The translations under genes were made by a program, and so were the position numbers. Under the pieces are notes generated by a model, which worked only from the letters and a program-made list of their open reading frames with translations, ran no database searches and was not told the origin of the DNA. Positions 3 to 21,445 of a DNA stretch of 64,000 nt are shown piece after piece. Position 1 is the stretch's first letter, and every line of letters starts with the position of its first letter. This stretch comes from a virus, in IMG/VR virus record IMGVR_UViG_3300022602_000029, positions 129,747 to 193,746 of that record; one strand, written 5' to 3'.

Positions 3-299
3 ATGAAGATGGATGAGCAGTATGATTTCAAGTATTATCAAAACATATTTAATCCTGGAAGCTATGACAAATGTCAGCCTTGTGATCTTAAGCAGGTATG
101 TAACGCAGGATGTACCTACAGCCAAGTTATGAATGATAATAAACCTTTAGATTCAGTTTGTGAACTATTTCACATCTATTATGAACAGGCTATGAGAGTA
201 GTAGCCGCATGTAGGAATGAACCTATCTTCCAAGACCTAATATTACATTACATTGAAAACGTAGGTGTAGAATCAGAAGGTGTAGAATGCAGGAACTAA
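3..299 (+). CDS. C-terminal SPASM-like part of a probable radical SAM protein (gene likely begins upstream of the window)
   Basis: CQPCDLKQVCNAGC is a Cx2Cx5Cx3C SPASM-type cluster motif followed by ...SVCELF; the ORF abuts the window edge. Confidence 0.7.
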   Translation: MKMDEQYDFKYYQNIFNPGSYDKCQPCDLKQVCNAGCTYSQVMNDNKPLDSVCELFHIYYEQAMRVVAACRNEPIFQDLILHYIENVGVESEGVECRN

Positions 300-604
300 A
301 AAAGAAAACCTATCGCAGTTTGGCAAGTATTCCTGTCAAGGTAGAGATGCAGCCCGTTGAACATGCTACTGATCGTGTATTGACTACAGAAGAACTACAA
401 GAGCAGATAGAAGAAGCACGTAAAGGCAAGGCCAAGGTAGATAGTAAGTATGTAGGTTTCGAGTTAGATGAACGCGGACATCTATTTGAATATAAACTAG
501 ACTATGTTTCTTTTTTATCCGATATGAGTTATATCATCAAAGAAGCTAAAAAGAGACCAAAAGAAAACAGATACAAAAATACTCACGAGATGATTATACA
601 ATGA
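287..604 (+). CDS. hypothetical protein in radical SAM cluster
   Basis: 105-aa ORF overlapping both neighbours (ATGA coupling at 601); no recognised motif. Confidence 0.6.
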   Translation: MQELKKKTYRSLASIPVKVEMQPVEHATDRVLTTEELQEQIEEARKGKAKVDSKYVGFELDERGHLFEYKLDYVSFLSDMSYIIKEAKKRPKENRYKNTHEMIIQ

Positions 605-1494
605 TACCCATCATACAGGAAAATCCAGGATTAGGTTTCTATGTAGGAGATTCTACAGATAAACCCACACCTGTAGGGTCTGGTGTGAATGTAATCTATT
701 TTACGAATAAATGTAATCTGGCCTGTACCTACTGCTATGAAGATCTTCCAGGTCGTCCTCCGCAGATAATGACGCGAGAAGATATACGTAAATCAATAGA
801 TATGATATTATCCAGAGAGAATCCTGATAACCAGACCTTGATAGTATTATTTGGAGGAGAAGCTACTCTAGAATGGGAAAATGTCTGCTACTGCATGGAG
901 TATGCCTACAGTAAAAAGACTAACATACACTTTAATCTCACTACTAATGGTATAAAATATCTCAGTCAAAAGTTTATCGACGAAACTAAAACTAACTTTT
1001 TCTACAGTATGGGCCTATTAAGCATAGATATCAGCTTTGATGGTGTTGGTAATGGGGACAGAGTATTCCACAACGGATCGGATTCTACCCTTTCTATGAT
1101 CAGAGTTTTTGGAAATCTCTTGAAGAATAACGTGAAGTTTAGGATAAGATACACTATGCATCATAGAAATATCAATAATATCTATGAAGATATATCTATG
1201 ATCATCAATAAGTTCCGTCCTACGAGATTAATCACCAGTGTAGCCTGGGATACATTACAAGACGGTGATAGATCTAAACTAGAGTCAGCAAAAGAACTGT
1301 TCAGAAAAGACTGGATAAATAAAAAAATAACTATTCCTGTCTGCGAATTCTTTTGTGATATGTGTAGCGGATGCGGAGAGAGGAAAGAATTGAAAACATA
1401 CTACACAGATGAAGGTAACGTAACTACTTATGGTAACTATGAAAACGCTCCAAAGTTCCATGATTTTAAAGAAAAGGTAACAATATGTCAGTAA
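601..1494 (+). CDS. radical SAM protein (anaerobic sulfatase-maturase/peptide-maturase-like)
   Basis: CNLACTYC (CxxxCxxC, nt 712-735), FGGEA, TTNG, ISFDG; short C-terminal CEFFCDMCSGC cluster. Confidence 0.9.
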   Translation: MIPIIQENPGLGFYVGDSTDKPTPVGSGVNVIYFTNKCNLACTYCYEDLPGRPPQIMTREDIRKSIDMILSRENPDNQTLIVLFGGEATLEWENVCYCMEYAYSKKTNIHFNLTTNGIKYLSQKFIDETKTNFFYSMGLLSIDISFDGVGNGDRVFHNGSDSTLSMIRVFGNLLKNNVKFRIRYTMHHRNINNIYEDISMIINKFRPTRLITSVAWDTLQDGDRSKLESAKELFRKDWINKKITIPVCEFFCDMCSGCGERKELKTYYTDEGNVTTYGNYENAPKFHDFKEKVTICQ

Positions 1495-1859
1495 TCGAAA
1501 AAATGAACCAAATAGCGTCTCTGATAGGTGAGATCAAACAGGAAGATGAAAATGCTGGAAATCTTCTGGCAGAAGGGTTTCTTCTATCAGCTAAACTAAT
1601 GCAGGAGATAACAGAAGCTGGAAATAGAGACAAGATTGATATTTCAGAACATTTAGCGATGATCGGAAGAGTTTTTGGTTTCACCGTGGAAGACCTAGTA
1701 AAATTTGTATTACAGAATAACTTCCAAAGCGTCGAATCAGACAAAGAACCTGATCCGGCCACATTAGAATTTATAACCAGCGATCTAGACGACTATGAAA
1801 AATTCTTAGCACAGAATAAAGCAAAGGAAGACCTAGATTTCCTATCTAAGGAGATTTAA
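1485..1859 (+). CDS. hypothetical acidic helical protein
   Basis: 124-aa ORF coupled between the rSAM gene and the Cys-rich gene; supplies the AAGGAG RBS of the next gene. Confidence 0.65.
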   Translation: MSVIEKMNQIASLIGEIKQEDENAGNLLAEGFLLSAKLMQEITEAGNRDKIDISEHLAMIGRVFGFTVEDLVKFVLQNNFQSVESDKEPDPATLEFITSDLDDYEKFLAQNKAKEDLDFLSKEI

Positions 1860-1861
1860 AA

Positions 1862-2650
1862 ATGACCTATTGTTCTTGCCTAGCCTGCGGTTCAGTTTGC
1901 TGTAACGCCACTGGCGGGGGTACTTGTGGACCTCAAGGATGTTGTGCTTCCTACGCTACAGCCTCATTAAGTTATAGTACAGGTATATGTGGCGCCGGAA
2001 GTTGTTCCTACACACCTACTTCTCTATCAGGAGTGATCTGTGGAGCTTGTTTTTGCCAACTATTGACTAATGTCTGCTGTGAAATGTGTAGAAGGAATCG
2101 TAGTGCTCCTAGCGGATGGGGACAGAGTAATCCTATTAATCACTCTGATTTTAACAGTTTGGTAAACTATATCAACCAATCTAGTTGTTGGCCTGCCGCT
2201 TGCTATCAAAGCTATTGTAATGGTAGTACGACTCCATGTAGTCAATCTAGTGCTGGAGCTCCATCGGGGGTTCCCGCAAACGCTAACGCAGGAGATGTAA
2301 TTTATAGTAGCTGTATAAATGCCTTAGTCAGCGCCATAGTTACTGCTGGTAATGCCTGTACCTGTAACTGCAACTACTGTACATGTAACTGCAACTACTG
2401 TACCTGTAACTGTAACTATACATGTACCTGTAACTGTAACTACAGTGATATCAGATTGAAAAAGAATATCAAACTATTGAAAACTATTAAGGGTATAAAC
2501 ATCTACAGTTTTAACTATGAATGGGATGACACAGAACAGATAGGAGTGATGGCACAAGAATTATTAGAATCAGGACATGACTATGCTGTCACTACAGATT
2601 CGAATGGGTTTTATATGGTTGATTACAGCAAACTACCAGTGAAGATGTAA
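1862..2650 (+). CDS. Cys-rich virion/fibre-like protein with C-terminal peptidase S74 intramolecular chaperone
   Basis: 33 Cys in the first 194 aa; residue 195 begins SDIRLKKNI...GVMAQEL...VDYSKL, the S74 chaperone signature; strong RBS aaggag. Confidence 0.85.
   Translation: MTYCSCLACGSVCCNATGGGTCGPQGCCASYATASLSYSTGICGAGSCSYTPTSLSGVICGACFCQLLTNVCCEMCRRNRSAPSGWGQSNPINHSDFNSLVNYINQSSCWPAACYQSYCNGSTTPCSQSSAGAPSGVPANANAGDVIYSSCINALVSAIVTAGNACTCNCNYCTCNCNYCTCNCNYTCTCNCNYSDIRLKKNIKLLKTIKGINIYSFNYEWDDTEQIGVMAQELLESGHDYAVTTDSNGFYMVDYSKLPVKM
2357..2443 (+). repeat. 4 x 21-bp coding tandem repeat encoding CTCNCNY
   Basis: tgtacctgtaactgcaactac-type units at 2357, 2378, 2399 and 2423, with one extra Thr codon before unit 4; in frame, with synonymous variation. 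Confidence 0.97.
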
Positions 2651-2659
2651 GGAAGTAAA

Positions 2660-3058
2660 ATGGATTATAAAGAAGTAGAAGGAATAGATGCTAACACATA
2701 CGCAGGTAAAGCCGCTCAGGCCTGTAAGGTAAAAGCGAGAGGTATATTGGGAGATGATCTTTTAACTTTTAAACTTATTGATTTTGTATCATTTATTATG
2801 ATAAACAATCGGTTTTTAAATAAAGGGATTATCATAACTGATGAAAACAAAGAAGAAGGATATATCAAGATTATAGAAACAGGAGATGAATCTCTAATAT
2901 CCGATCTAGAAAAGTACCTAGATCTTAGGGATAGTATTAAGAGTATAGAAAATTCTAAGAATGAATACTCTGATATCATCAATAAACTTAAATCATTGCA
3001 GGATCATAATGATAGAGATTCAGTCAATGCTATAGTCGAAGAATATCTAAGACGATAA
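2660..3058 (+). CDS. hypothetical protein, possible partner/chaperone of the Cys-rich protein
   Basis: 132-aa helical ORF with RBS aaggaag directly after the Cys-rich gene; role inferred from position only. Confidence 0.6.
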   Translation: MDYKEVEGIDANTYAGKAAQACKVKARGILGDDLLTFKLIDFVSFIMINNRFLNKGIIITDENKEEGYIKIIETGDESLISDLEKYLDLRDSIKSIENSKNEYSDIINKLKSLQDHNDRDSVNAIVEEYLRR

Positions 3059-3074
3059 GTTATAGGAAAAATCA

Positions 3075-4082
3075 ATGTTAATAATAGTAAATACGATCGA
3101 TTCAATCAATAGAAATCTTATAGGATTACGACTATTAGAAACATTCAACGACTTTAAGATAGACAACTTGACTGTGAAGATTGAAGGAATGGCCAGCAGT
3201 TTAACTAACTATGTTCTATATAACGAACAAGGATCAATAGTATATCCTACAGAACCAGTTGATACAGATGCTTTGGAAAAACTTATATCTTTCCAAAACG
3301 ATAGACTGTCAATAACTAGATCAGACCTACTAATCAAATTAGATTTTGCTTCTGTTGAGCATGATTATGGAATATTAAATAATCCTATCATGGAAAATCT
3401 AGATCAACCGTTAAACACTTACGAAGCTCAGTTAGATGCTTATCGTAATGATAGCAATAGTTGCAGAGTGATCGTTGGTATTTTTGGAAAATGGTTCATA
3501 GACAAGATGAGACAAGATATAGGAGCCGATAAGGTCAAGGTCCTAAATATTGTCAGGAATCCATCTGTTTGTTTTGTCTTAAATCAGACTCAAAATAAAC
3601 AAAACGATCTATTTAAAGAATATAAACATTTAAGAAAATCAATATTAAATGCCGTAAGTTTATCTAGATTTGATGATATCACCACAGTCAAGTTTGAAGA
3701 TATGTTATCATCAGGATCGATAATCTTTGATGGTGTTACTATCACATTACCTGAATCGTATCAAAACCATAATAATCTGTTGACAGCATACGAATATCAT
3801 AATCTGATATCTAAAGCTACTGATCAAAATCTAGATCAGTTTAACCAAGAGTATTCAAACTACGAATTAGATCATTTTGTAGATATTACCGCAGAAGAAA
3901 AAACACAACAGACTCCGCCTCCAATCGGACTTTACGGATTTGTAAAAATTAAAGATCATATCACTTTTACAAATCAAAAACTTGGATTAAATATTGCCGA
4001 GGAGACATTGACTCCTTTAAGCATGAACATTTTTACATCTCTCGGATATAATCCGTTATCACTTTCTCAAATATCTAGTTGA
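3075..4082 (+). CDS. hypothetical protein, weak sulfotransferase-like motifs
   Basis: KVLNIVRNP and VKFEDML resemble sulfotransferase 3'-PB and downstream motifs; no clear 5'-PSB loop. Confidence 0.4.
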   Translation: MLIIVNTIDSINRNLIGLRLLETFNDFKIDNLTVKIEGMASSLTNYVLYNEQGSIVYPTEPVDTDALEKLISFQNDRLSITRSDLLIKLDFASVEHDYGILNNPIMENLDQPLNTYEAQLDAYRNDSNSCRVIVGIFGKWFIDKMRQDIGADKVKVLNIVRNPSVCFVLNQTQNKQNDLFKEYKHLRKSILNAVSLSRFDDITTVKFEDMLSSGSIIFDGVTITLPESYQNHNNLLTAYEYHNLISKATDQNLDQFNQEYSNYELDHFVDITAEEKTQQTPPPIGLYGFVKIKDHITFTNQKLGLNIAEETLTPLSMNIFTSLGYNPLSLSQISS

Positions 4083-5023
4083 GATTTAAAAATATCGAGC
4101 AGTACAAAATGTCTAAGATATTTAATCTCAAGCAATATGATCTAGTCTTCACTACTTCGTTTTATATCAAACACGGAGTGTCTGGACACATGTATGAGTT
4201 GATTGATTATTATTATATTTGTAAAAAGTCTGGAATCAACTGTGCTATCCTTTTAGCAGACGGCGTTGACAAACAAACATTTTTCAATGCGATCAAATAC
4301 AAATACAACTTTGACATAGATATCCTAAAGGATACACACCAATGTCATAACCCTAGAATTATTAGAACTAAGAATATCTGCATCGTAGATGGTTCCTGGA
4401 GAGTTAATGACTGTACAATATATGCAGACAACGCATTCTTATTAAGATGCTCAGAAGACGACTATACTTGGTTTGATACCAGTAAGTCAATTAAGCAAAC
4501 ACATCTTATGCAGGACTTTAAACTGTATCCAGAACGATACCGAGACTTAAACATTAAGGTTGTTGATTATGTTAAGAAAATACTTTGGAGCAAATATGTA
4601 CAGCCCAAACCGACTAATAACGATACCGGTTTGTTTTATCTAACAACTAACTGTAGAGCAATCCCTGCAGAAGAAGTTAAAGCTATTATGGATAAGGGTA
4701 TATGTACAAATTATATTATAGTCACTGACCGTCCTAATCTTTACCAACCTCTGTTGGCTGATAATGTATCTATAGCACAGGCTCCATTACAGAATATATT
4801 TGAACATTTTGACACCTACATATATACTAAGACAGAATTACAGTCTGATTGCAGTCCTAGGTTTATTGTTGAGTGTGCTATGTTTGGTAAAAACGTTGTT
4901 TACGAAATTGATTATCTATGCGCAGGTGTAGAACGTAGAAAACAGGACATAGATGCAGACTTATCAAGTTTAGAATTAACTACAGATGATTACTTTGTAG
5001 AATACGTAAAACAGTTTATATGA
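4079..5023 (+). CDS. putative GT-B-like glycosyltransferase (start TTG 4079 or ATG 4109)
   Basis: C-terminal DCSPRFIVECAMFGKNV resembles the GT-B nucleotide-binding segment; N-terminal HGVSGH loop. Confidence 0.45.
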   Translation: MRFKNIEQYKMSKIFNLKQYDLVFTTSFYIKHGVSGHMYELIDYYYICKKSGINCAILLADGVDKQTFFNAIKYKYNFDIDILKDTHQCHNPRIIRTKNICIVDGSWRVNDCTIYADNAFLLRCSEDDYTWFDTSKSIKQTHLMQDFKLYPERYRDLNIKVVDYVKKILWSKYVQPKPTNNDTGLFYLTTNCRAIPAEEVKAIMDKGICTNYIIVTDRPNLYQPLLADNVSIAQAPLQNIFEHFDTYIYTKTELQSDCSPRFIVECAMFGKNVVYEIDYLCAGVERRKQDIDADLSSLELTTDDYFVEYVKQFI

Positions 5024-6072
5024 TACCTATTAGAACAGAGTCCAATCATCTCGCTGAATTAAGTTCCGCAGGGCTAGAGCTTGATCTTATAACACAACCC
5101 TGTGTTCGTGCTAGATTAGATACAGGTACATTTTGTAATTACGACTGTGAGTTTTGTTACTACAGAGATAAACTAGATGTTAAGACAGAGTTTGATATTG
5201 TAAAAGAACGTGCAGACTATTTGCTTGCCTACGGTATCAAACAAGTAGACCTAAGTGGAGGAGAAAGCTCTGTAAGCCCTGATTGGTTTAAGATACTAGA
5301 CTATTGTAATGAACGCTTTGAACACGTTAGTTGCCTAAGTCACGGAGGTAGATTTGCCAATATTGAATTCCTACAGGAGTCAATGGAGCATGGACTAAAA
5401 GAAATCTTGTTTAGCCTACACGGAGCAACAGCAGAAACACATGATGCTATTACCAATCGTAAAGGATCCTTCAAACGTATCCTTCAAGCAATCAAGAATG
5501 CACAAGAGCTAGGATGTGTAGTACGAATTAACTGTACTGTCTATCACAAGAACTATCATCAACTGGTAAACATCTATGCTGACCTAATTAATGGAATCAA
5601 ACCTTTAGAAGTTAATTTTATTACATTAAACTATTGGGATGATGTTTACATTGATAATGTTACCTACAAAGATATGACTGACAACATTAAAAGTTGTATT
5701 GATATCTTAGACAAGGGTATGATCATCAATGTCCGTTATGTGCCTTATTGTTACATGAAAGGCTATGAGAAATATGTGTGTGATCAATATCAACACATAT
5801 ACGATATCTATGATTGGAATAAGGAAATGTATTCTAATGTGATTGATGTTAGTAAAACCTATACACAGGAACAAAAGATACAGTTTGCCTATGATGCTTG
5901 TAAGAAGTTTCGTGCTAGGTTTTATCGTAAACAAGTTGATTGCCTGAAGTGCAAACACTTCTATATTTGTGATGGTATTGAAAGAGAAATAGCTGACAAG
6001 AATCCTGTGTTTCCAGAAGCAGGAGATAAGATCAAACAGGTTAATTTTTATAGAGCAGTACATTTCAAATGA
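5020..6072 (+). CDS. radical SAM protein with C-terminal Cys cluster
   Basis: CNYDCEFC (nt 5134-5157), LSGGES, SLHG, C-terminal CLKCKHFYICDG. Confidence 0.9.
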   Translation: MIPIRTESNHLAELSSAGLELDLITQPCVRARLDTGTFCNYDCEFCYYRDKLDVKTEFDIVKERADYLLAYGIKQVDLSGGESSVSPDWFKILDYCNERFEHVSCLSHGGRFANIEFLQESMEHGLKEILFSLHGATAETHDAITNRKGSFKRILQAIKNAQELGCVVRINCTVYHKNYHQLVNIYADLINGIKPLEVNFITLNYWDDVYIDNVTYKDMTDNIKSCIDILDKGMIINVRYVPYCYMKGYEKYVCDQYQHIYDIYDWNKEMYSNVIDVSKTYTQEQKIQFAYDACKKFRARFYRKQVDCLKCKHFYICDGIEREIADKNPVFPEAGDKIKQVNFYRAVHFK

Positions 6073-6680
6073 AACTGTCTATATTAATTCTTACACACAA
6101 TCGTCCTAAATTATTCAAACGTTGTTTGGAAAGTGTTCTCACACAGATAACTCCAGAAGTTGAAGTGTTGGTTAATAATGACAGTTGCGATATTGAAGAG
6201 ATTGTTCATTCGCAGGTACAATATTTTTATAACAAGTTTGATAGCCTATGTGAGATATATCAATTCCTACTATCAAAGGCGCAGGGAACCTATGTGTACT
6301 ATTTAGAAGATGATGATTATCTTGTTACTGATTTTCTAGAACAAACATTAGATGCAGATTTGATTGTTGGTAATTACTGTCCTAAATATGCAACAGAAGA
6401 CATGCTGACTTTTATGACTATGTATAACAACAACAGAGTAACATCGGCTGAGTTTTTATCTAATCTTAATACAGAACATCTGCAACTATCGCAACACATA
6501 TACAAGCGTGAACATATAGTAGATTTTAATTTTCCAAATGACAGTAACGTACACAACGATATTAAACTAACAATACACGCGGCTAACAAAGCAAGGGCTA
6601 TTAGAACAGTAAACAAAGTGTTTTACTTTCAAACAATAGATGGTGGAGATAATATCTCTTTTCCTAAACATGAACTATAG
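6069..6680 (+). CDS. glycosyltransferase family 2-like (GT-A)
   Basis: LSILILTHNRP...CLESVL N-terminus, VNND, YYLEDDD acidic motif. Confidence 0.8.
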   Translation: MKLSILILTHNRPKLFKRCLESVLTQITPEVEVLVNNDSCDIEEIVHSQVQYFYNKFDSLCEIYQFLLSKAQGTYVYYLEDDDYLVTDFLEQTLDADLIVGNYCPKYATEDMLTFMTMYNNNRVTSAEFLSNLNTEHLQLSQHIYKREHIVDFNFPNDSNVHNDIKLTIHAANKARAIRTVNKVFYFQTIDGGDNISFPKHEL

Positions 6681-7572
6681 CAAGCAACATCACATCGACC
6701 AAGACCCTGATCATATCAACGTGCATTGGGATGTTCTTACGATCTGTCAGTTAAAGTGTAGCTATTGTTATGCTCGTAATGAGTATGGAAAGAAGTGGGG
6801 TAAGCTGGGCAGTCGTGAAATCGCCGACGGAGTATTAGAAGCACTGAACAGAAGTAGCTTACCATTTAACCTAGGATTGTTGGGCGGAGAGCCTACACTA
6901 AGCCCGCACTATTATTACATCTTAAATCGTATTAGTGAGATGGAAAAGTTTAATAAAGTTTATGTTGTAACTAATGGAGAAAAGGACTTTGCTACGCACC
7001 CAGACTATGAAAAGATTGCTTTCTTGTTTAGTTATCATCCTGCTGATTGTACAAATAGGGATCGGTTTGTTTCTAATGTAAAACTAATGAAGGATCGTGG
7101 CTATAAAGTTAAAGTTAACGTAATGTTACATCACGGCAAGCAGTATTGGCCATTGATCAAAGAAATGTTTGAAATATGCGATGCTATAGGTGTCAAAGCA
7201 CATCCACACTTTATATATGGTAAAAGTGTACACCAACTGTTTAACTATCGTAAAGCCTTTTGGGATTACTTTAGTTTCTTAAAAGAAAGAGACAGAGAAC
7301 TAGTCTATGGCGATGAACTTAAGAACGATTACGAAATCTTTAGCGAACGTCTAACAAACTTCGAAGGCTGGAGTTGTTACAACAACAACTATGAGCTAGA
7401 TGTCTACGGTCAAGTGATTAAGTTCTGCTTAGACAATGAGCGTAAGAGCCTTCTTGAGAATCCAGACTTCTTTAAAAACATAACCAAGACCGTACCTATG
7501 ACATGCCCTCACAAGGCCTGCAACTGTGATGGCTTACTCAAACAACTTAAGGTGAATCCAAATGCAAGTTGA
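6670..7572 (+). CDS. radical SAM protein with short C-terminal Cys-rich domain
   Basis: CQLKCSYC, LGGEPT, VTNG; C-terminal GWSC...FC...CPHKACNC; start moved to the coupled ATG at 6670. Confidence 0.88.
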   Translation: MNYSKQHHIDQDPDHINVHWDVLTICQLKCSYCYARNEYGKKWGKLGSREIADGVLEALNRSSLPFNLGLLGGEPTLSPHYYYILNRISEMEKFNKVYVVTNGEKDFATHPDYEKIAFLFSYHPADCTNRDRFVSNVKLMKDRGYKVKVNVMLHHGKQYWPLIKEMFEICDAIGVKAHPHFIYGKSVHQLFNYRKAFWDYFSFLKERDRELVYGDELKNDYEIFSERLTNFEGWSCYNNNYELDVYGQVIKFCLDNERKSLLENPDFFKNITKTVPMTCPHKACNCDGLLKQLKVNPNAS

Positions 7573-8308
7573 ATGGGAAGTCACAATGAAGTGTAACTAC
7601 AACTGTTACTATTGCTCTAACCTAGACAAGAGCATACACCATATCACTGATCACGAAGTCCTGCGCAACTTTATCAAAATTTTGGGAGAAACTTATCCAG
7701 GTGTGGAGATATTCCTGTTTGGAGGAGAGCCATTTGTGCATCCTGAAATAGGTTTCATCATTAAATGCTTTAACGAATTTAATATTCCATTTGTAATACA
7801 AACTAATCTAAGCAAATACAGTATTGAAGTTATGAAAACTATCGATTCTCCTTATATACTACAGGCTAGCATACATCCTACAGAAATATCACACCAAGAC
7901 CTCGAAGACATCCTTAAAGAAAATATCGTATGTAGAGTTGTTGATGTAATGTTCAGTGGCAAGGAAGCCTTGTGGTACTATTTTAAAGTAAAAGAAAGCA
8001 CAACTGGTAAAGTATATCTTACTCCAGTTACAGATTTTGGAGATGGCCGCAGTGATACCGCTTTACAGGAATACTTGAGTTTAAAAAATGATCCTAACTA
8101 TAATAAGATAATAAAATTTGAGGAAATAGAAAGGCTAGGCAAGCCTAGATCAGAACTGTGGGCTACAATATCCTTTAGTCCTAAAGGAAAGCCCTGTCTA
8201 TACAAAGACAAATACTTTCTGTACAGTCCACAACTAGAGATGTACAACTGTTGCTATAGAATTAAAACGGACGGCATCTGCCCAAAAAGCAAATGCTTCT
8301 TAATGTAA
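7562..8308 (+). CDS. compact radical SAM protein
   Basis: CNYNCYYC, FGGEPF, QTNL; C-terminal PCLY...NCCYR...CPKSKC. Confidence 0.88.
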   Translation: MQVEWEVTMKCNYNCYYCSNLDKSIHHITDHEVLRNFIKILGETYPGVEIFLFGGEPFVHPEIGFIIKCFNEFNIPFVIQTNLSKYSIEVMKTIDSPYILQASIHPTEISHQDLEDILKENIVCRVVDVMFSGKEALWYYFKVKESTTGKVYLTPVTDFGDGRSDTALQEYLSLKNDPNYNKIIKFEEIERLGKPRSELWATISFSPKGKPCLYKDKYFLYSPQLEMYNCCYRIKTDGICPKSKCFLM

Positions 8309-8748
8309 TGTTTAAGAATATATTTGACGGATACTCGGAAGCAATATCAAATGGCGCAGAAACTACGCTAGCATTCATATTGGATAACAAAAGAGCTATT
8401 GTTAATGAAGTAGGGTTTTTTGGATTTAAACAGTTTACCTTAAACTATCGTATATATTTTGATAACAAACGCAAAGACAGAATAATAAAAGACCTACACA
8501 AATATGTGTTAAGTAAAGAAGAGGAACATAAGAGCGACCTAGCAATAGGACATAATGCTATTACCAAACTACACTTGCCAAGAGAGTTAGAAATACAGAT
8601 TGTTGAATTTATGTTTGATCGTATGAAAGACACATATCTGGTAAAGTATAAACATCTTGAAAATTTACCTAACTCATTTGTTGTTAAAAAGCATTTAGTA
8701 ATAGATTATGTCTACACAAAGATTCTAAGAAAGAAGGAGATAAGATGA
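8308..8748 (+). CDS. hypothetical protein
   Basis: TAATG-coupled start at 8308; basic 146-aa ORF. Confidence 0.6.
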   Translation: MFKNIFDGYSEAISNGAETTLAFILDNKRAIVNEVGFFGFKQFTLNYRIYFDNKRKDRIIKDLHKYVLSKEEEHKSDLAIGHNAITKLHLPRELEIQIVEFMFDRMKDTYLVKYKHLENLPNSFVVKKHLVIDYVYTKILRKKEIR

Positions 8749-9557: not shown

Positions 9558-9570
9558 GATATAATAACAT

Positions 9571-12687: not shown

Positions 12688-13456
12688 GAATAATAATGAT
12701 GTAACCTATGAGAAGATGTCCATAGCGTTAGCCTGTAGTATAAGAGATTATCTACCCGACATCGATATCTACTGCGGAACCTTCACTAATCCGGTAACGT
12801 CATATACACGTCTGTGGTTCCATAGATTAAAAGTAAAATATATAGAAGATTTAATCTTTAAGGATTTGCCTCCCGCTAATCCTAAGATGTTCCTACGGAC
12901 ATTTACCAAAGACTATTTTGCCAAAAAACTTTTAGATCATTATGACTATCTAATATATCTGGACGTAGATGTATTGATGTTAGGTATTCCAAACTTTGAT
13001 TTTGATCCTACTGGTCCTATGGTACTAGTGGATACTATGCCTAACTGGATAGTAAACTTCCATAGACGATACCTAGATGATTTAGAGGAAAGTCTCTACT
13101 ATAACTGGATAGAAATCATCAACCAACACAACAAAAAAATATTTGATCTAGATTATAAAGATCCCTATGTGTTAGATATACATAATGCTGATGTTCTAAT
13201 ATCTAATAGGATCAATAGTTCTAACTTAATCTTGATAGAACAAAATATAGGAGGATATCATTGCGCAAAAATATCCAAACCTACACATGTTTTTTATCAC
13301 TATGACTCACTAGGCGATGCGGGTAGTTTACATAACATAGAAAGCACACATCCTGTCCAATATCAAAAATATTTAAAACTATTTGAAGAGACCTTAAATA
13401 TCAGGGTAATATCTATAGTTGGTTATTGGGAAAAAGTAGCAAAGGAATATTCATGA
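12659..13456 (+). CDS. putative GT-A-like glycosyltransferase (start uncertain, TTG 12659 or 12617)
   Basis: YEKMSIALACSI...YLIYLDVDV (DxD motif), GT8-like layout. Confidence 0.5.
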   Translation: MKYAIIFSVENNNDVTYEKMSIALACSIRDYLPDIDIYCGTFTNPVTSYTRLWFHRLKVKYIEDLIFKDLPPANPKMFLRTFTKDYFAKKLLDHYDYLIYLDVDVLMLGIPNFDFDPTGPMVLVDTMPNWIVNFHRRYLDDLEESLYYNWIEIINQHNKKIFDLDYKDPYVLDIHNADVLISNRINSSNLILIEQNIGGYHCAKISKPTHVFYHYDSLGDAGSLHNIESTHPVQYQKYLKLFEETLNIRVISIVGYWEKVAKEYS

Positions 13457-15353: not shown

Positions 15354-15832
15354 GAAAAACCCTTCACAAGTTGTTATCGAGATTAAATCATCCTGATGTT
15401 TATCTCCTGCATTCCGATATGTGGAAATGGGATAATACAAAATATAATTGTATTAACTGCGGGGTACAAGAACCCAATATGGTTAATATGGCCGCGGGTC
15501 TAGCTAGCCAGGGTAAGACTGTGTTCGTCTATGGAGTCTGCGGTTATGTTCTCTATAAATGCTATGAGCAGATGAAATATAATGTACGAGGTTGGGCTGA
15601 CACCAAAGGATCTGTGATATTTGTTAACGCAGGACATAACGGGGCGTATGCCCATCAAGGAAAGGGCGGATTCATTCCAGAAGATGCTGATTTATGCACT
15701 CTATTACAAATACCTGTTTATACTCCTGAAGATCGAAGTACCTTTGTAAAATATGTAAAAGATTCTATTAGACAACCTCACGGATCTCGCCTCATAAGAT
15801 TAGGATGGGATGATGAAGTATGGAAGAAGTAA
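15350..15832 (+). CDS. transketolase-like pyrimidine-binding subunit, truncated
   Basis: GVQEPNMVNMAAGLA, CYEQMK, IRL; only 160 aa, lacks the C-terminal domain. Confidence 0.75.
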   Translation: MRKTLHKLLSRLNHPDVYLLHSDMWKWDNTKYNCINCGVQEPNMVNMAAGLASQGKTVFVYGVCGYVLYKCYEQMKYNVRGWADTKGSVIFVNAGHNGAYAHQGKGGFIPEDADLCTLLQIPVYTPEDRSTFVKYVKDSIRQPHGSRLIRLGWDDEVWKK

Positions 15833-16449
15833 AACTACCTCTCTATAGAAGTTTCATACCTACTGACAGTATCCCTTGGAAGCAAATAAATGCCGATCTT
15901 GATAGAGGAGATACTGATTATAGAGATGTAGAGAAAGGAGTCACTACCGCTGGATTAGGCCTCAGAGTTGACTTAGAACCTTGGGCATCGGGCTATAAGT
16001 CTGCAGTAATAGATGTCGTAAATAGATTTATTCCCTCGTCTATAAAACAAGAATATAATAGTTGGACTGATATGCATTGGATCAATAGAACATGTAGAGA
16101 CGGACATGTTAGGAAACATATACATTACCCTTGTGATCTAGCTGTGGTTTGGTATTTGGATATTCCCGAAAGAAGCGGGCATTTCGTTATGCATTTTGAC
16201 AACAAAGATCATGTAATCCCTGTATCGACTGGAGATTTCATAGCCTTTCCTGGAAGTATACTACATTATTCTCAACCTAGTCAAACTGATTCTCCGAGAT
16301 ATGTTATGGCATCTAATGTGCTTTGGACTGAATCGACTTTATATTCCCTCAGAGATAAATTATCAAATCATGAAATAAATTCCTATATTGAAAAAGTATT
16401 TTATGAAAGACAAGAACACCTAATAAGAGATATGATGGAAAAGTTATGA
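15820..16449 (+). CDS. 2OG-Fe(II) oxygenase-like
   Basis: WINR...KHIH...VWYL...FPGSILH...RYVMASN. Confidence 0.75.
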   Translation: MEEVKLPLYRSFIPTDSIPWKQINADLDRGDTDYRDVEKGVTTAGLGLRVDLEPWASGYKSAVIDVVNRFIPSSIKQEYNSWTDMHWINRTCRDGHVRKHIHYPCDLAVVWYLDIPERSGHFVMHFDNKDHVIPVSTGDFIAFPGSILHYSQPSQTDSPRYVMASNVLWTESTLYSLRDKLSNHEINSYIEKVFYERQEHLIRDMMEKL

Positions 16450-17054
16450 ATGTTGCTGTAACAGGACTAAACGGATTTATTGGCAGATATCTAGTCAAAG
16501 CCCTGACTGAAAAAGGATTTATCGTAGACAACAACGCTAAACATATTAGTCGTGTTTACCACCTGGCTTGTCCTGCTACAACTGAACGAATCAACTCAGA
16601 TCCTCTAGCAGTAATGGATACTATACTGGATATGACGAGGAGGACCATTAAGATGTGGCCAAATGCAAGATTCATAAATGCCAGTTCTATAGGAGCTTCT
16701 CAGATTGATGATGTTGACACCAGTCCACAAACAGCGTACAATATAGCTAAGAGGTGTATGGAAATTTATCTCATACATAGTAACATCATGTTTACCAACT
16801 ATAGATTACCTGCGGTATACGGAGAAGGTATGCATGATGATCATTTTATTAAGAGGTGTGTGGATCATACAGCTTATAAGCCAGAGGATCCTGATAAGCC
16901 CTATTGGATCGCCCACGTAGAAGATGTGGTAGAATCTATGGTAGCTTTAGAACCCATTAAGATGGAAAAAATAACAGTAGGTGAAATATATGAATTATTT
17001 AATTCTGGGAGGCGCGGGCTTCATAGGCCAACACCTAACCCGAGCATTGTTTGA
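16446..17054 (+). CDS. NAD-dependent epimerase/dehydratase
   Basis: TGLNGFIG, YHLACPA, NASS, YNIAK, RLPAVYG. Confidence 0.8.
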   Translation: MNVAVTGLNGFIGRYLVKALTEKGFIVDNNAKHISRVYHLACPATTERINSDPLAVMDTILDMTRRTIKMWPNARFINASSIGASQIDDVDTSPQTAYNIAKRCMEIYLIHSNIMFTNYRLPAVYGEGMHDDHFIKRCVDHTAYKPEDPDKPYWIAHVEDVVESMVALEPIKMEKITVGEIYELFNSGRRGLHRPTPNPSIV

Positions 17055-17925
17055 GCAGAAGGAAAGGCATGTTGGAGTTACAGTAATAGACAACTTAAAG
17101 ACTTCTAATAGAGAATGTCTAGAACAGTTCAGAGAATATAAAAATCTATTTAGATTCATAGAAGCTGACCTTACGACCATAGACGACGAAGAATTTTTAA
17201 AGATAGCTCGCAAGCACGATAAGATATTTCATCTAGCAGGAAGTGTAGGAGTCGAGAATGTAGATAAAAATCCTAGCGAAACTCTGTTCAATAACCTAGC
17301 TCTAGCTAACAAGCTCATTCCTTTATTTCAAAAATTAAGGAATAGACACATTACATTCGCTAGTACTAGCGAGATATACGGTGAAGGTCCATTCTATGAA
17401 GAAGCAAATGCCAGTATTGGTCCAAGCAGTAAACTACGATGGGGATATGCCAGTGCTAAACTCACTACAGAGTTTATGATACGGGCCAGCGAGTTTCCTT
17501 ATACTATCGTAAGGTTCTTCAATATAGTAGGTCCAGGACAGTTAGGAGATTATGGCATGGTATTGCCCCGTATGATATATGCGGCCAAAAATAACAAAGA
17601 CATAATAGTTTACGGAGACGGTAATCAAGTACGTAGTTTTTGTCATGTATATGACGCCGTCGATGGATTGATCAAACTGTCTGATACTAATGGAGAATTG
17701 TTCAACATAGGTAACGACCTTCCTATCAGTATCAAAGATTTGGCACAACGGGTTATCGACTTATCAGGATCTCAATCTAAAATACAACTAGTTCCTTATG
17801 AACAGGTGTTCAGCAAACATCATGGGGATATCTACAAACGTATTCCTGATTTAACAAAGATAAAAAATGCCATAGGATATCAACCCAAATACGGATTAGA
17901 TGATATTATTAAAGATATGTTATGA
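16990..17925 (+). CDS. NDP-sugar epimerase/decarboxylase (extended SDR)
   Basis: GGAGFIG, HLAG, ASTSEIYG, YASAK, RFFNIVGP, QVRSFCHV; ATG at 16990 with RBS aggtga. Confidence 0.9.
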   Translation: MNYLILGGAGFIGQHLTRALFEQKERHVGVTVIDNLKTSNRECLEQFREYKNLFRFIEADLTTIDDEEFLKIARKHDKIFHLAGSVGVENVDKNPSETLFNNLALANKLIPLFQKLRNRHITFASTSEIYGEGPFYEEANASIGPSSKLRWGYASAKLTTEFMIRASEFPYTIVRFFNIVGPGQLGDYGMVLPRMIYAAKNNKDIIVYGDGNQVRSFCHVYDAVDGLIKLSDTNGELFNIGNDLPISIKDLAQRVIDLSGSQSKIQLVPYEQVFSKHHGDIYKRIPDLTKIKNAIGYQPKYGLDDIIKDML

Positions 17926-18605
17926 TTTATACATACAAAGCCAAGGTCAAGGCCACTACGAGGTCTAGATGTCTAGATCCCTACACAGAAGAATTCTTGC
18001 GAGGAGCAGGTAACTTCTTCTTGGCTAGATGGTTTTATTATTTTAATCATGATTTATATGATCCTGTATTGATATGGAATATGACGGATTTATCAAAGAT
18101 AGTTTTAGAGTTTGGGAATAATCGATATATAGGTAAGATGATACGTGCCGAAAGAGGAGAAGAAATTTGGTTAGATGCTAATTTTATATCTCCCTACCCT
18201 TGGAATAAAACAATAGATGATCTAGAAGTAGGTGATCTTATTAGGACCACCGATCGTGTAGATTTCCCTACTAATATGGAGGACCTTATGACTGTAGGAC
18301 GATTTCAAGGTAAACTCTATGAAGAAGTAGTAAGACCTACATTAAGGAATGCTAATCTAAGTTCGAGATTTTTTAACATATCTGCTCCTGGTAAACCGTT
18401 GTTACCTGAAGGATACACAGTAGCGAAGGCTTTTGCTAAACGTGTACTACCTCATCATTATATTATAAGGATGGATGGTAAGGATTGTGATATGCTAGGA
18501 GAAGGATCTCGTCCTTTGAAAAAAATATACACAGTAGAAGAATATGGCGGAATTATTCCTGCTGTTACAGAAATGTTTTTTGATGCTAAGGAAACGATGA
18601 AATGA
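17922..18605 (+). CDS. hypothetical protein
   Basis: 227-aa ORF coupled on both sides; no motif recognised. Confidence 0.6.
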   Translation: MIYTYKAKVKATTRSRCLDPYTEEFLRGAGNFFLARWFYYFNHDLYDPVLIWNMTDLSKIVLEFGNNRYIGKMIRAERGEEIWLDANFISPYPWNKTIDDLEVGDLIRTTDRVDFPTNMEDLMTVGRFQGKLYEEVVRPTLRNANLSSRFFNISAPGKPLLPEGYTVAKAFAKRVLPHHYIIRMDGKDCDMLGEGSRPLKKIYTVEEYGGIIPAVTEMFFDAKETMK

Positions 18606-19264
18606 AAATAACAGCTATGGTTCCAGTAAGAAAAGGATCGCAGAGGGTCAAATCTAAAAATTCTAAATCTTTCTCAGATACAAGTTTATTAGATATAAGA
18701 CTAAATCTATTAAAAAACGTCAATGGGCTAGATCAGATTATAGTTAGCACGGATTGCGAAGAATGTACCAGCATAGCAAAATCACATAACGTAGAAGTGA
18801 TAGCGAGAGATCCTTACTATGCTGGAGACATTCCTAATAATGAATTCCTTAAGAATCTAGCAGAATGCTGTCCAGGAGATGCTATGATGTATTCAGTAGT
18901 AACAAATCCATTCCTAAGAAAATCAACGATAGAAAAGAATTTAAACTTGTTTAGGCAAGGTGGAATGGATAGCATAATGTCAGTCTCTCTAGAAAAGAAG
19001 TTCCTATGGTTAGATGGAAAACCGATCAACTATGAAGCTACCAGGGCTCCCAGGAGTCAGTTACTTCCAGAGATAGTATCTCTTAACTTTGCTATGTCGA
19101 TCATAGAAACAAAAAAGATGATAGAGAAAGAAAATCTAATAGGAGATAATCCACTGCTCATCACTTTAGATAAAATACAAAGCATAGATATAGATGACGA
19201 GGAAGATTTTATGATAGCAGAGACACTTTATGAAAAACTAGGATTTGATTGGATATTACAATGA
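18602..19264 (+). CDS. acylneuraminate cytidylyltransferase (NeuA/CMP-sugar synthetase)-like
   Basis: PVRKGSQRVKSKN, VSTD, PRSQLLP, DIDDEEDF. Confidence 0.88.
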   Translation: MKITAMVPVRKGSQRVKSKNSKSFSDTSLLDIRLNLLKNVNGLDQIIVSTDCEECTSIAKSHNVEVIARDPYYAGDIPNNEFLKNLAECCPGDAMMYSVVTNPFLRKSTIEKNLNLFRQGGMDSIMSVSLEKKFLWLDGKPINYEATRAPRSQLLPEIVSLNFAMSIIETKKMIEKENLIGDNPLLITLDKIQSIDIDDEEDFMIAETLYEKLGFDWILQ

Positions 19265-19917
19265 AAATACTTTTCATATTTGCTCATCCTGATGATGAGG
19301 TTTTTGGTCCTGCCGGGACTATTACAGATCTAGCTACTAACAATAATGTCCTAGTAGTTTCTTTATGTAACGGAGCTCGTCCGGGTAATCCAGAAGTCGC
19401 TGAAGGTAGGATAGAGGCCTTTAAAAAATCTTGTGAAACTATGGGAGCGGAGTGGAGAATATATTCTACTCCAGATTGCGCACTAAGTTATGACGATACT
19501 TTAAAGACTATTGAAAATATTGTCAGCCAAGAAATACCCGATATAGTATATACGCACAACATATCCGATATACACAGAGATCACAGATTAGTAGCAGAGT
19601 GTTGCATGGTTGCCTGTAGACCTAAACCATCTAGCACAGTTAAAGAGTTGTATATGTGCGAACTACCTGCTAGTACAGACTGGAGCTTTGGACAGATAGA
19701 ACCTATCTTTAATCCTAATGTCTATAAAGATGTTTCAGATCTTATAGGAATAAAAGAACAAGTCATGATGTTATATGGAACAGAAGTATATGAACATCCG
19801 GACGCTAGATCTATAGAAAGTATGAAAACGATGGCCAAAAATCGAGGAAGACAATCAGGAGTCAGTTACGCAGAAGCGTTTCAACTGGTATTCTCTCTTG
19901 ACCGTAAAAATCGCTGA
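19261..19917 (+). CDS. PIG-L/LmbE-family N-acetyl-sugar deacetylase
   Basis: AHPDDE, DIHRDH, YAEAF. Confidence 0.9.
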   Translation: MKILFIFAHPDDEVFGPAGTITDLATNNNVLVVSLCNGARPGNPEVAEGRIEAFKKSCETMGAEWRIYSTPDCALSYDDTLKTIENIVSQEIPDIVYTHNISDIHRDHRLVAECCMVACRPKPSSTVKELYMCELPASTDWSFGQIEPIFNPNVYKDVSDLIGIKEQVMMLYGTEVYEHPDARSIESMKTMAKNRGRQSGVSYAEAFQLVFSLDRKNR

Positions 19918-20398
19918 TTCCGAAAGTTTTAAGGAGAGAGGTATACATACCATTCTGGTCATCGTTATAAGGATAACAAAACTTGTGAGGTTTGAATCCT
20001 AGATTCTTATCAAACTCTAGAAGCATCTTTTTAGTATCTTCAATAATATAGGACATTTTATCAATGATCTTATTAAAATCTTTCAGCTTTTTATGCTCGT
20101 GACCATGTCCGCCTATAGTAACTTGTGGATCATTCATAAGTTCTTTTATCTGTTTCCAAGTCATATAATCTTCTTTATTTCCTTTGAATGCTTTCTCATG
20201 GGCCTCGTGGCAGGTGGGAAAATCTAGAGATTGTGTATTCTCGCAGATTATGTTGGTTGAGATAAAGAATATCTTTTCAGTATCGATCTTACTTAATCGA
20301 TCAAAATAATAGTATTGGCTATACAATCCATCATCGAAGGTCAGTATATAATCCTTTAATGGCAGTTTAAATATCTCTTCTGAGATATGATGTATCAT
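19862..20398 (-). CDS. polysaccharide deacetylase (NodB/CE4)-like
   Basis: LTFDDG, GGHGHEH, FCYPY; start moved to ATG 20398. Confidence 0.85.
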   Translation of the reverse strand: MIHHISEEIFKLPLKDYILTFDDGLYSQYYYFDRLSKIDTEKIFFISTNIICENTQSLDFPTCHEAHEKAFKGNKEDYMTWKQIKELMNDPQVTIGGHGHEHKKLKDFNKIIDKMSYIIEDTKKMLLEFDKNLGFKPHKFCYPYNDDQNGMYTSLLKTFGISDFYGQERIPVETLLRN

Positions 20399-20409
20399 GA
20401 GTACTTCCA

Positions 20410-21078
20410 TCAAAATGTATATCCAAATATATCTAGGTCTTCTTCTAGCCACCTGTAGGCGATCGCCTGTGTTTCGCTATCATAATATTCTCTATAGTTA
20501 TTATGCAGACTAGTATTAGTATGTTGCATGGGCGCATAACATTTTAGCAGGTCCTGTATCTTGACAAAATCTCTTTCTATATATTCTAGTTTAACTACGA
20601 TATCAGGAATAATATTATTAAAGAAAAAGCATTGGGTTTCTTTGTCTTTCTTGTTAAACATAGACAATCTCAGGAGATCGGAATCTCTAGAAACAGCATT
20701 CTTGATCCAATACCGGAAACCCTTATTATAGTTTATTAACAGTTTAAGATCTTCTTCTACATCGTAGCTAACGACCTCTTCAGATCCTTGATTATTCTTC
20801 CTACGATGAATCCTTTTTTTTGAATCCTGTCCTAGGAAATGGAATATACTTACCAGCCTATCATAGGGATTACGGACAAACCCAAAAGTAGTTCCATAAT
20901 CCGGCCACATTTTTTTTATTTCGTCTAGAGATTCGTGAGTAAGCATATTAGGATATCTAGGATCTGTAGGTAAATCTCTATCGGTGATATTGGCCAAGGC
21001 CCAAAACTTGAAGCTAGTTGAGCCTACTCTAGGCACATTCCTAAACGTAGCAGGAACTGCTGGAAAATGTATGGGCAT
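20410..21078 (-). CDS. sulfotransferase family 2 protein
   Basis: VPRVGSTS (5'-PSB), FVRNPYDRLVS (3'-PB), C-terminal YREYYD; start 21078 lies one base after the iscA stop. Confidence 0.85.
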   Translation of the reverse strand: MPIHFPAVPATFRNVPRVGSTSFKFWALANITDRDLPTDPRYPNMLTHESLDEIKKMWPDYGTTFGFVRNPYDRLVSIFHFLGQDSKKRIHRRKNNQGSEEVVSYDVEEDLKLLINYNKGFRYWIKNAVSRDSDLLRLSMFNKKDKETQCFFFNNIIPDIVVKLEYIERDFVKIQDLLKCYAPMQHTNTSLHNNYREYYDSETQAIAYRWLEEDLDIFGYTF

Positions 21079-21079
21079 T

Positions 21080-21406: not shown

Positions 21407-21411
21407 GCTAT

Positions 21412-21426
21412 TATTTAAGATAAATA
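21412..21426. promoter_or_regulatory. back-to-back divergent TAAATA late-promoter motifs
   Basis: tattta 21412-21417 (minus strand, 5 nt before the iscA ATG) and taaata 21421-21426 (plus strand). Confidence 0.65.
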
Positions 21427-21445
21427 TAACTCTAGGAGAACTTAT

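Follow-up and report, generated by a model that had tools for sequence, protein, structure and literature searches.

A predicted late operon of a T4-like aquatic phage that may crosslink and glycosylate a virion fibre protein

What would a phage modify with several dozen tailoring enzymes? The question is raised by a locus in a 64,000-nucleotide stretch (the window) of the IMG/VR virus record IMGVR_UViG_3300022602_000029, in which genes for such enzymes crowd positions 3-21078 in an AT-rich, tightly packed block. The full unit exceeds this interval. Its start lies some 4.5 kb upstream of the window, where Pfam searches identify an NDP-sugar dehydrogenase, a 2OG oxygenase and two radical SAM enzymes. 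In total the block holds approximately 36 enzyme genes, including seven for radical SAM enzymes as well as those for sugar-making enzymes, glycosyltransferases and a halogenase. Thirty-three genes run in one direction and the largest intergenic gap is at most 16 bp, which bears out the compact block of about 30 genes described in an initial annotation. The operon is roughly 26 kb long and positions 3-21078 make up most of it.

The AT-richness suspected in the annotation is also real. The GC content is 0.360 in the cluster and 0.430 in the remaining contig, and the cluster is the lowest-GC 26-kb stretch of the 193.7-kb contig. The same dip is common to all three complete relatives (G001-G003) and is thus an old, inherited trait and not a sign of recent acquisition. 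Of the suggestion that the cluster was acquired as a module, what stands is that two sub-modules occur separately elsewhere and that several genes are add-ons. At least 12 viral contigs, the complete genomes G001-G003 (202-214 kb) among them, preserve the order of the genes between the dehydrogenase and the CE4 deacetylase, and the genes are dispersed in Campylobacter phages.

The initial annotation left out the 262-aa protein round which the block is built. The genes leading up to it are as follows.

Just upstream of the window: rSAM1, radical SAM with SPASM domain (Pfam)
3..299, + strand: last 98 aa of the 374-aa radical SAM rSAM2, whose C-terminal Cys set is SPASM-like; gene start 825 bp upstream of the window
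287..604, + strand: s105, small conserved protein, position kept, 52-78% identity
601..1494, + strand: rSAM3, radical SAM whose C-terminus holds a second Cys cluster (C248, C252, C255, C258)
1485..1859, + strand: s124, small conserved protein
1862..2650, + strand: Cys-repeat fibre-type protein, 262 aa with 33 Cys (Pfam S74, PHROG), likely substrate

The Cys-repeat protein belongs to Peptidase_S74 (34.4 bits against a Pfam cut-off of 22 bits) and has tail-fibre PHROG matches. Its (CTCNCNY)x4 block ends at Y194, where the S74 intramolecular chaperone begins, and sits at the self-cleavage site of that chaperone (S195...K200 dyad). The SDxRxK residues S195, D196, R198 and K200 are invariant across 8 homologues; S195 and K200 presumably form the Ser...Lys cleavage dyad known in endosialidase. 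The repeat block is likewise invariant. Its 12 Cys are unchanged between proteins that are otherwise about 40% identical, and codon comparisons of the block give 353 synonymous differences against 59 non-synonymous ones.

Three radical SAMs of peptide-maturase type (rSAM1-3) stand ahead of this gene. Peptide maturases (PapB, SCIFF, CXXX-repeat) are the best matches of all three, which retain the CxxxCxxC motif plus auxiliary Cys sets. Both rSAM1 and rSAM2 have the C-terminal SPASM-type region and auxiliary-cluster Cys ligands of SPASM-type maturases. The SPASM match of rSAM1 scores 24.3 bits (Pfam cut-off 21.5), and rSAM2, with six C-terminal Cys, matches the PapB model from end to end. Among solved structures CteB (5WGG, E=3.5e-16) is its best relative, and rSAM2 is found at 76-90% identity in 12 viral contigs. 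None of the three reaches the equivalog cut-off of a named maturase family, the top score being 127 bits against 340 for PapB. RiPP maturases usually carry an N-terminal substrate-recognition (RRE) domain. This domain is absent from rSAM1 and rSAM2, in which CxxxCxxC begins at residue 11-12. The small protein s105, for which Pfam and PHROG searches found no family, could be a stand-alone substrate-recognition partner. The 262-aa protein itself is, judging from its sequence and setting, the likely substrate of the cluster enzymes.

We refer to rSAM1, rSAM2, s105, rSAM3, s124 and the 262-aa protein as module A. Among the closest known systems is that of CrpC, a SPASM radical SAM of Methanococcus voltae, which installs ranthionine thioethers on the full-size Cys-repeat protein CrpA (PMC13692751). 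Module A resembles CrpC/CrpA, CteB and PapB in that a SPASM-type radical SAM gene lies beside the gene of a protein with a repeated Cys motif. It differs from them in being viral and part of a 36-gene tailoring operon, in having three such enzymes, none with a recognition domain at its N-terminus, and in scoring below the family cut-offs throughout. Unlike CrpA, the putative substrate is a phage fibre-type protein with S74, and its repeat has the form CxCxCxY instead of CxxQ/D. The radical SAMs of module A would install thioether-type crosslinks in the (CTCNCNY)x4 block, which would become the C-terminal tip of the protein once the S74 chaperone has aided assembly and cut itself off. Alternatively, the repeated Cys could serve as metal ligands and not be crosslinked.

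RiPP-type radical SAMs together with a halogenase, oxygenases, glycosyltransferases and a sulfotransferase also form a natural-product-like toolkit. The Cys-rich protein might then be a RiPP precursor, tailored and freed at lysis as an antimicrobial or signal. We consider this very improbable, because the supposed precursor has a fibre-assembly chaperone and tail-fibre matches, its homologue in the Campylobacter phage CPt10 sits among tail genes, no leader protease or exporter was found, and the core block is invariant rather than diversified.

Downstream of the fibre-type gene the block continues with enzymes of a different kind.

2660..3058, + strand: s132, small conserved protein (phrog_25260)
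3075..4082, + strand: u335, poorly conserved (25-38% identity)
4079..5023, + strand: u314, predicted GT-B-fold glycosyltransferase, virus-only family (phrog_24441)
5020..6072, + strand: rSAM4, radical SAM, 47% identity to a CP220 protein
6069..6680, + strand: GT2 glycosyltransferase, short (203 aa)
6640..8308, + strand: rSAM5 and rSAM6, compact radical SAMs (6640-7572; 7562-8308)
8745..9557, + strand: U32-like a, TIM-barrel
9571..10644, + strand: rSAM7, radical SAM
10641..13456, + strand: accessory genes, namely 2OG-Fe(II) oxygenase b (10641-11234, Pfam family level), u192b (short, SDR-like), U32-like b (11806-12687, paralogue of U32-like a) and u279
13426-14151 and 15350-15832, + strand: split transketolase-like TPP enzyme (Pfam)
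14082-15353, + strand: flavin-dependent halogenase, between the transketolase halves (Trp_halogenase E=1e-66, 226 bits)
15820..19917, + strand: 2OG-Fe(II) oxygenase c (15820-16449, Pfam family level), two SDR NDP-sugar epimerase/dehydratases (16446-17054 and 16981-17925, Pfam family level), u227, PseF-like cytidylyltransferase CTP_transf_3 (18602-19264, Pfam) and PIG-L deacetylase (19249-19917, Pfam)
19862-20452, - strand: CE4 polysaccharide deacetylase (Pfam), the conserved cluster end in relatives
20410-21150, - strand: Sulfotransfer_2 enzyme (Pfam)

The AF2 model of u314 (pLDDT 92) has the two-Rossmann-domain GT-B fold. Foldseek returned 29 matches at E<=0.001, essentially all of them GT-B enzymes, and the lowest E-values belong to GT41-type protein glycosyltransferases. 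On the strength of this modelled fold, which we assign with confidence, u314 appears to be a newly recognised GT-B glycosyltransferase. The neighbouring u335 has no relationship to it when the two are compared. s132 always lies after the S74 protein, in distant phages and CP220 included, and in distant phages too u314 comes after both. rSAM4 is almost always beside u314 (9 of 13 loci examined).

All seven radical SAM genes have the CxxxCxxC motif and score above the PF04055 gathering threshold; relatives carry 1-4 copies of the rSAM5 type. The other enzyme classes named in the initial annotation hold at family level by Pfam, with the exception of U32. The U32 match of U32-like a covers 40 residues only and stays below threshold (18.4 against 22.4 bits), and a Pfam search with U32-like b gave no match. 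The U32 protein 5d88 (TM 0.49-0.53) is one of many TIM barrels matched, and the fold is not clearly set apart from the rest. C38, C176 and C180 of U32-like a are invariant and C207 is nearly so.

The halogenase matches PF04820 and has both the GxGxxG and WxWxIP motifs, as GGGTSG at 16 and WCWHIP at 230. Its K81, in CNGTLKLG, is a candidate catalytic Lys of the kind seen in PrnA/RebH. The gene is optional, being found in 3 of 5 related records. The PseF-like match of the cytidylyltransferase scores 57.8 bits against a 205.7-bit cut-off. A NeuB/PseI-type synthase was sought as its CMP-nonulosonate or CMP-Kdo partner; NeuB is absent from all four genomes and the contig has no sugar-acid synthase to match the CMP-transferase. 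The family matches of the radical SAM and sugar enzymes all lie below curated equivalog cut-offs, and hence no reaction can be named.

We group as module B s132, u314, rSAM4, the GT2 enzyme, rSAM5-7, the TIM-barrel U32-like protein, the split TPP enzyme and the sugar genes (SDR epimerase/dehydratases, two deacetylases and the NDP-sugar dehydrogenase); drawn more widely, the module takes in the S74 protein as well. Module B would produce an unusual activated sugar within the cytoplasm and transfer it to the fibre or to a neighbouring virion protein. Three add-on 2OG oxygenases, the third of which is upstream of the window, the cytidylyltransferase and the sulfotransferase would add further decoration. 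An APS kinase encoded elsewhere in the contig, among the compared genomes in this one only, could supply PAPS to the sulfotransferase. Missing from G001-G003 are the three 2OG oxygenases, the CMP-transferase, the sulfotransferase, u227, u279, u192b and U32-like b. The accessory genes of 10641..13456 recur in some related contigs (L015, L073, L091), one of which (L073) carries a sulfotransferase 46% identical to that of the cluster, and a u279 homologue is present in CP220.

In this contig, Fe-S assembly genes directly adjoin the other end of the block (21080-22609).

21080-21406, - strand: IscA-type (Fe-S_biosyn)
21888-22274, + strand: IscU/NifU_N (NifU_N 179.8 bits)
22274-22609, + strand: IscA-type (Fe-S_biosyn)

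The two IscA-type genes score 71 and 78 bits for Fe-S_biosyn, and together with the IscU scaffold they provide the A-type carriers of an ISC system. IscU is also found in G001 and G003 at other genome positions. The adjoining IscU/IscA proteins would feed the many Fe-S clusters needed by the cluster enzymes.

The initial annotation had the cluster decorating virion proteins or the host surface rather than DNA. Late timing bears on this choice. The contig holds ten copies of the T4 late-promoter motif TATAAATA, all intergenic, and nine of them are located 13-40 nt ahead of an ORF, which in three cases is a virion structural gene. One copy lies 36 nt before rSAM1 and heads the 33-gene run, and the operon is therefore probably expressed late. 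Virion proteins are the better half of the alternative given this motif, the S74-chaperoned fibre-type protein within the operon, the three flanking radical SAMs of peptide-maturase kind and the GT-B glycosyltransferase after the fibre gene.

The host surface is weakened as a target. The T4-like cyanophage P-SSM2 has 24 'LPS' genes that were proposed to alter the host surface (PMC1079782), and the dehydrogenase, epimerases, deacetylases, GT2 enzyme, sulfotransferase and cytidylyltransferase seen here are typical of surface-polysaccharide loci. Remodelling of a host-surface glycan during infection, for example to block superinfection, is nevertheless improbable. Hydrophobic 19-mers of the sort that span membranes are absent from all cluster enzymes, and Pfam and hydrophobicity searches of the cluster found no flippase, polymerase or membrane-bound initiating phosphoglycosyltransferase. 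The late-promoter motif and the embedded fibre gene speak against it as well, and surface-glycan loci are not known to carry seven radical SAMs. The P-SSM2 clusters are described without a radical SAM set, a Cys-repeat fibre gene or a halogenase, whereas the pathway here is wholly soluble and lies within a predicted late fibre operon.

DNA hypermodification in phages does involve glycosyltransferases and radical SAMs, and guanine is fully substituted in the Campylobacter relatives. The phage bases might receive a sugar or another group as a defence against restriction, a reading to which we assign the lowest probability of those considered. As the initial annotation had stated, hallmark genes are lacking: TGT/DpdA, QueC and ThyA-family (dNMP hydroxymethylase) genes are absent from this contig (G000), G001 and G003, with the limit that the Pfam model used for TGT/DpdA could miss distant genes of DpdA3 type. 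The complete relatives G001 and G003 carry the same cluster without these genes. The 7-deazaguanine route of CP220 needs only one radical SAM, QueE, which has no homologue here, and late timing (predicted) and an embedded fibre gene fit poorly. DNA is thus disfavoured as far as the known routes go.

The reading that we prefer is that of a late operon whose products, encoded in two separable modules, crosslink and glycosylate a virion fibre, and from the sequence evidence we place it at about even probability. A T4-like aquatic phage would chemically mature one of its own particle proteins by means of a late operon of approximately 26 kb. Chemical modification of its own particle protein by such an operon has never been shown for a virus, and no paper was found that describes module A or module B. 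Mycobacteriophage virion proteins are reportedly decorated by phage glycosyltransferases encoded beside structural genes, an observation credited to Freeman and colleagues in 2023. There, one or two glycosyltransferases use host sugar nucleotides. The locus described here shares the placement of phage glycosyltransferase genes beside a structural gene and differs in having about 20 sugar-pathway and radical enzymes alongside the transferases.

The two modules might also be unrelated neighbours, with module A maturing the Cys-repeat protein and module B acting as an independent sugar pathway on a non-virion target (a soluble metabolite, a host molecule or precursor supply). Module A is found without B in L025-L029 and L034-L037, and B without A within reach in L089, L090, L092, L098, L099 and L101. 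The Cys-repeat protein is therefore not necessarily a target of B. The genes of CP220, moreover, are scattered over its genome. We regard independent systems as unlikely, but as less so than the other alternatives. In the B-only loci the first B genes still come after either a long fibre-like protein or an ORF of S74 type, A and B form one gap-free operon in all members of the close clade, and aquatic and Campylobacter phages have inherited the two sets together.

About 15 cluster genes recur in the cultured Campylobacter group II phages CP220, CPt10 and CP21, where they are dispersed rather than gathered in one operon. These include homologues of rSAM1-4, u314, s132, the dehydrogenase, both transketolase halves, the epimerase, the PIG-L and CE4 deacetylases and the Cys-repeat protein. 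The 11-12 radical SAM genes of these phages have been termed 'highly unusual' and a metabolic benefit was suggested; the 21-bp repeat was treated as repeat DNA only, and no link was drawn between the radical SAM enzymes and the repeat protein (PMC2853527). The halogenase is also present in CP21 and IBB_35.

The viral contig is 193,746 bp long, and the window is its final 64 kb. Its capsid gene is of the T4 gp23 type, and identity between its structural proteins and their cyanomyovirus counterparts is approximately 34%. The CheckV completeness of 54% is probably an underestimate: relatives that have terminal repeats measure 202-214 kb, so little of the genome is probably missing from the 193.7-kb contig. 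The tailoring-enzyme cluster described in the initial annotation is present and extends beyond the window on the upstream side, and Fe-S genes follow it downstream. Four further cluster genes lie upstream, encoding an NDP-sugar dehydrogenase, a 2OG oxygenase, a radical SAM enzyme with a SPASM domain and a 374-aa radical SAM enzyme, the tail of which forms the first ORF of the window. This brings the radical SAM genes of the cluster to seven (rSAM1 to rSAM7). From rSAM1 to the PIG-L deacetylase, 33 genes run in the same direction and the largest gap is at most 16 bp. Directly downstream of the cluster (window 21080-22609) are two genes for IscA-type carriers, with one for an IscU scaffold (E=3e-53) between them. 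The complete relatives G001 and G003 encode IscU as well, at other genomic locations. The G001 copy contains an in-frame TAA. Between the IscA and IscU genes here is a 103-aa ORF (window 21446-21757, plus strand) with no family match; its lipoprotein-type signal (…ASQAC) leads into a tail rich in Gly, Tyr, Pro and Gln. No tRNA genes were found in the window, and neither the cluster nor the 25 kb that follow it matched any deposited phage by megablast.

The cluster was noted at the outset to be more AT-rich than its surroundings, and it is in fact the 26-kb stretch with the highest AT content in the contig (GC 0.360 versus 0.430). Recent acquisition is rejected as the explanation because the same dip is present in all three diverged complete relatives, which makes AT-richness an inherited property of the cluster. 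The proposal that the genes were acquired as a module survives only in the form of old separable modules plus add-ons that are absent from the complete relatives. A DNA ligase gene is downstream of the cluster here (22674-23996) and upstream in some relatives (L016:1015-2322, L074:49), so a rearrangement has affected either the cluster or the sequence flanking it.

The enzyme classes first listed were all recovered at the Pfam family level with the exception of U32. Within the window these are five radical SAM genes and the C-terminus of a sixth (3-299), two 2OG oxygenases, a Trp_halogenase-family enzyme (E=1e-66), a transketolase-like enzyme in two pieces (N half and Pyr half), two SDR epimerase/dehydratases, a CTP_transf_3 cytidylyltransferase, PIG-L and CE4 deacetylases, a Sulfotransfer_2 enzyme and a GT2 glycosyltransferase. 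All radical SAMs of the cluster retain CxxxCxxC, and the halogenase carries both of its signature motifs (GGGTSG and WCWHIP). The U32-like ORF has a weak Pfam match (18.4 bits against a cut-off of 22.4); its AlphaFold model (pLDDT 86) is a TIM barrel to which the solved U32 protein 5d88 is no better match than other TIM barrels. NCBIfam profiles named no sugar enzyme or radical SAM of the cluster at the equivalog level. The ORF u314 belongs to no Pfam family and has a predicted GT-B glycosyltransferase fold (pLDDT 92). The structures matched at the lowest E-values are GT41-type enzymes that glycosylate proteins; the TM-scores are modest. The ORF u335 was excluded as a paralogue of u314 by hhalign, and u227 has no relative in Pfam, PHROG or PDB. 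The CMP-transferase was dropped as a marker of a pseudaminic or legionaminic acid pathway because no NeuB/PseI-type synthase was found. The position of the halogenase is as follows:

Window 13426-15832: split transketolase-like enzyme with the halogenase between its halves; same layout in G002 and G005.

In G003 the transketolase-like halves are adjacent and the halogenase follows a short SDR gene. G001 has no halogenase gene. An APS kinase domain is encoded at contig 71031-71282, approximately 58.5 kb upstream of the window; this genome is the only one of four tested that has it, and the same is true of the sulfotransferase.

Gene order is conserved. The series dehydrogenase, rSAM1, rSAM2, s105, rSAM3, s124, Cys-repeat protein, s132, u335, u314, rSAM4, GT2, rSAM5 (one to four copies), rSAM6, U32-like ORF and rSAM7 is kept in at least 12 viral contigs (s105, s124 and s132 are small conserved proteins), which shows that the genes are not randomly shuffled across relatives. 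Three complete or near-complete genomes (202-214 kb) continue with TK_N, in some cases the halogenase, TK_pyr, two SDRs, PIG-L and the CE4 deacetylase. Absent from the complete relatives G001 to G003 are the three 2OG oxygenases, u192b, a second U32-like ORF (U32-like b), u279, u227, the cytidylyltransferase and the sulfotransferase, some of which reappear in other related contigs.

Two sub-clusters can be separated across more distant phages. Module A consists of rSAM2, rSAM1, rSAM3 and the Cys-repeat protein, and occurs on its own in L025-L029 and L034-L037. Module B opens with an S74-type ORF, s132, u314 and rSAM4, and frequently continues with GT2, rSAM5-7, the transketolase halves, epimerase, PIG-L and CE4 deacetylase. 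It is found without module A within reach in L089, L090, L092, L098, L099 and L101. Module B is nevertheless tied to fibre-type genes where the heptad is missing: in L098 and L101 a stand-alone 107-aa S74 ORF leads into s132, in L092 the module B genes come after a 1374-aa fibre-like protein, and L094 and L097 have variant Cys repeats.

The Cys-repeat protein (window 1862-2650) has 262 aa, of which 33 are cysteines. The last of four CTCNCNY heptads finishes at Y194 and is followed immediately by SDIRLK, with which a Peptidase_S74 intramolecular chaperone begins. PHROGs for tail-fibre and virion proteins match its C-terminal part. The same 12-Cys block is found in this slot in every close relative although the rest of the proteins are only about 40% identical, and S195 and K200 are invariant. 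Pairwise codon comparisons of the block gave 353 synonymous and 59 non-synonymous differences, the latter at the few variable positions, so selection acts on the peptide. A trimer prediction for residues 140-262 (three copies) scored 0.00 and is not taken as evidence on assembly in either direction. The three radical SAMs just upstream have peptide maturases as best matches (PapB, SCIFF and the CXXX-repeat family), all under the cut-offs, and among proteins of solved structure CteB is the best match to rSAM2. A parallel is provided by the SPASM enzyme CrpC, which puts ranthionine links on a Cys-repeat protein (PMC13692751, 2026), so that crosslinking chemistry on a full-size protein has precedent.

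Campylobacter group II T4-like phages have approximately 15 cluster genes in common with this contig, dispersed over their genomes. The homologues include rSAM2 (37%), rSAM4 (47%), rSAM1, rSAM3, u314, s132, the dehydrogenase, both transketolase halves, the epimerase, PIG-L and the CE4 deacetylase; a halogenase homologue (36%) is found in CP21 and IBB_35. These phages also encode CPT_0180/gp145, a 534-aa homologue of the Cys-repeat protein with six or seven CTC[D/N]CNY heptads, located amid tail genes and adjoining a gp63-like fibre-attachment gene. It surfaced in pattern scans; tBLASTn of the Cys-repeat protein against phages gave no match because of the low-complexity filter. When the genome was published in 2010 (PMC2853527), the presence of 11-12 radical SAM genes was described as "highly unusual" and tentatively put down to metabolism, and the 21-bp repeat was treated simply as repetitive DNA.

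The target was originally proposed to be virion proteins or the host surface and not DNA. Modification of DNA might be suspected from the modified guanine of CP220, which was dropped as the reason for the common radical SAMs: it is accounted for by a separate route whose genes (FolE, QueD, QueE, QueC and DpdA3) are all outside the cluster. The lack of a base-modification hallmark noted in the cluster extends to this whole contig and the complete genomes G001 and G003, where no TGT/DpdA, QueC or ThyA-type gene is present. Decoration of the host surface is weakened by the absence of membrane parts, as no cluster enzyme has a membrane-type hydrophobic segment and genes for a flippase, a polymerase and an initiating transferase are all missing. 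The contig has ten copies of the T4 late-promoter motif TATAAATA, every one of them between genes. Nine sit 13-40 nt ahead of an ORF, three of these ORFs matching virion structural or tail-spike families; one motif, at contig position 127791, is 36 nt ahead of rSAM1. Taken together, the missing DNA genes, the missing membrane parts and the TATAAATA positions lead us to favour a cytoplasmic, late-acting pathway directed at a particle protein.

We give about an even chance to virion-protein maturation in which module A would crosslink the heptad tip, module B would make and transfer an unusual sugar, and further oxidation, halogenation and sulfation would be added in this genome. A broader reading is possible but rather doubtful. 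On this reading the virus would encode a complete and self-sufficient "post-translational factory" that combines Fe-S assembly of its own and seven radical enzymes with the means to make and transfer sugars, halogenate and sulfate, and that would turn the fibre tip into a crosslinked, glycosylated, natural-product-like structure. The tailoring logic of RiPPs and glycans would thereby act on a receptor-binding or stabilising element of the virion, in common between aquatic T4-like and Campylobacter phages.

If this is true, phages go beyond one or two capsid-glycosylating transferases to whole biosynthetic pathways for their own particle, and the long-unexplained surplus of radical SAMs in Campylobacter phages has a function. 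The range of enzyme-made thioether crosslinks, now peptides plus one archaeal protein, would grow to include structural proteins of viruses, and some "auxiliary metabolic" sugar clusters of aquatic T4-like phages may really be virion-maturation genes. Enzymology also gains new targets in the invariant CxCxCxY heptad and in the GT-B family confined to viruses. Because cultured Campylobacter phages carry the key genes, the idea is directly testable in virions by mass spectrometry.

The Cys-repeat protein varies in architecture. In this contig it has an extra N-terminal region of approximately 80 aa with 21 more cysteines (window 1862-2100) that is lacking in close relatives; L094 has a comparable Cys/Ser/Thr-rich N-terminus. 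Two relatives have three or four tandem Cys-repeat paralogues (L009:12696-15260 and L010:9501-11558). One copy in L010 has the full S74 domain, and its remaining copies and all four of L009 stop a few residues past the SDE.(L/V)K domain start.
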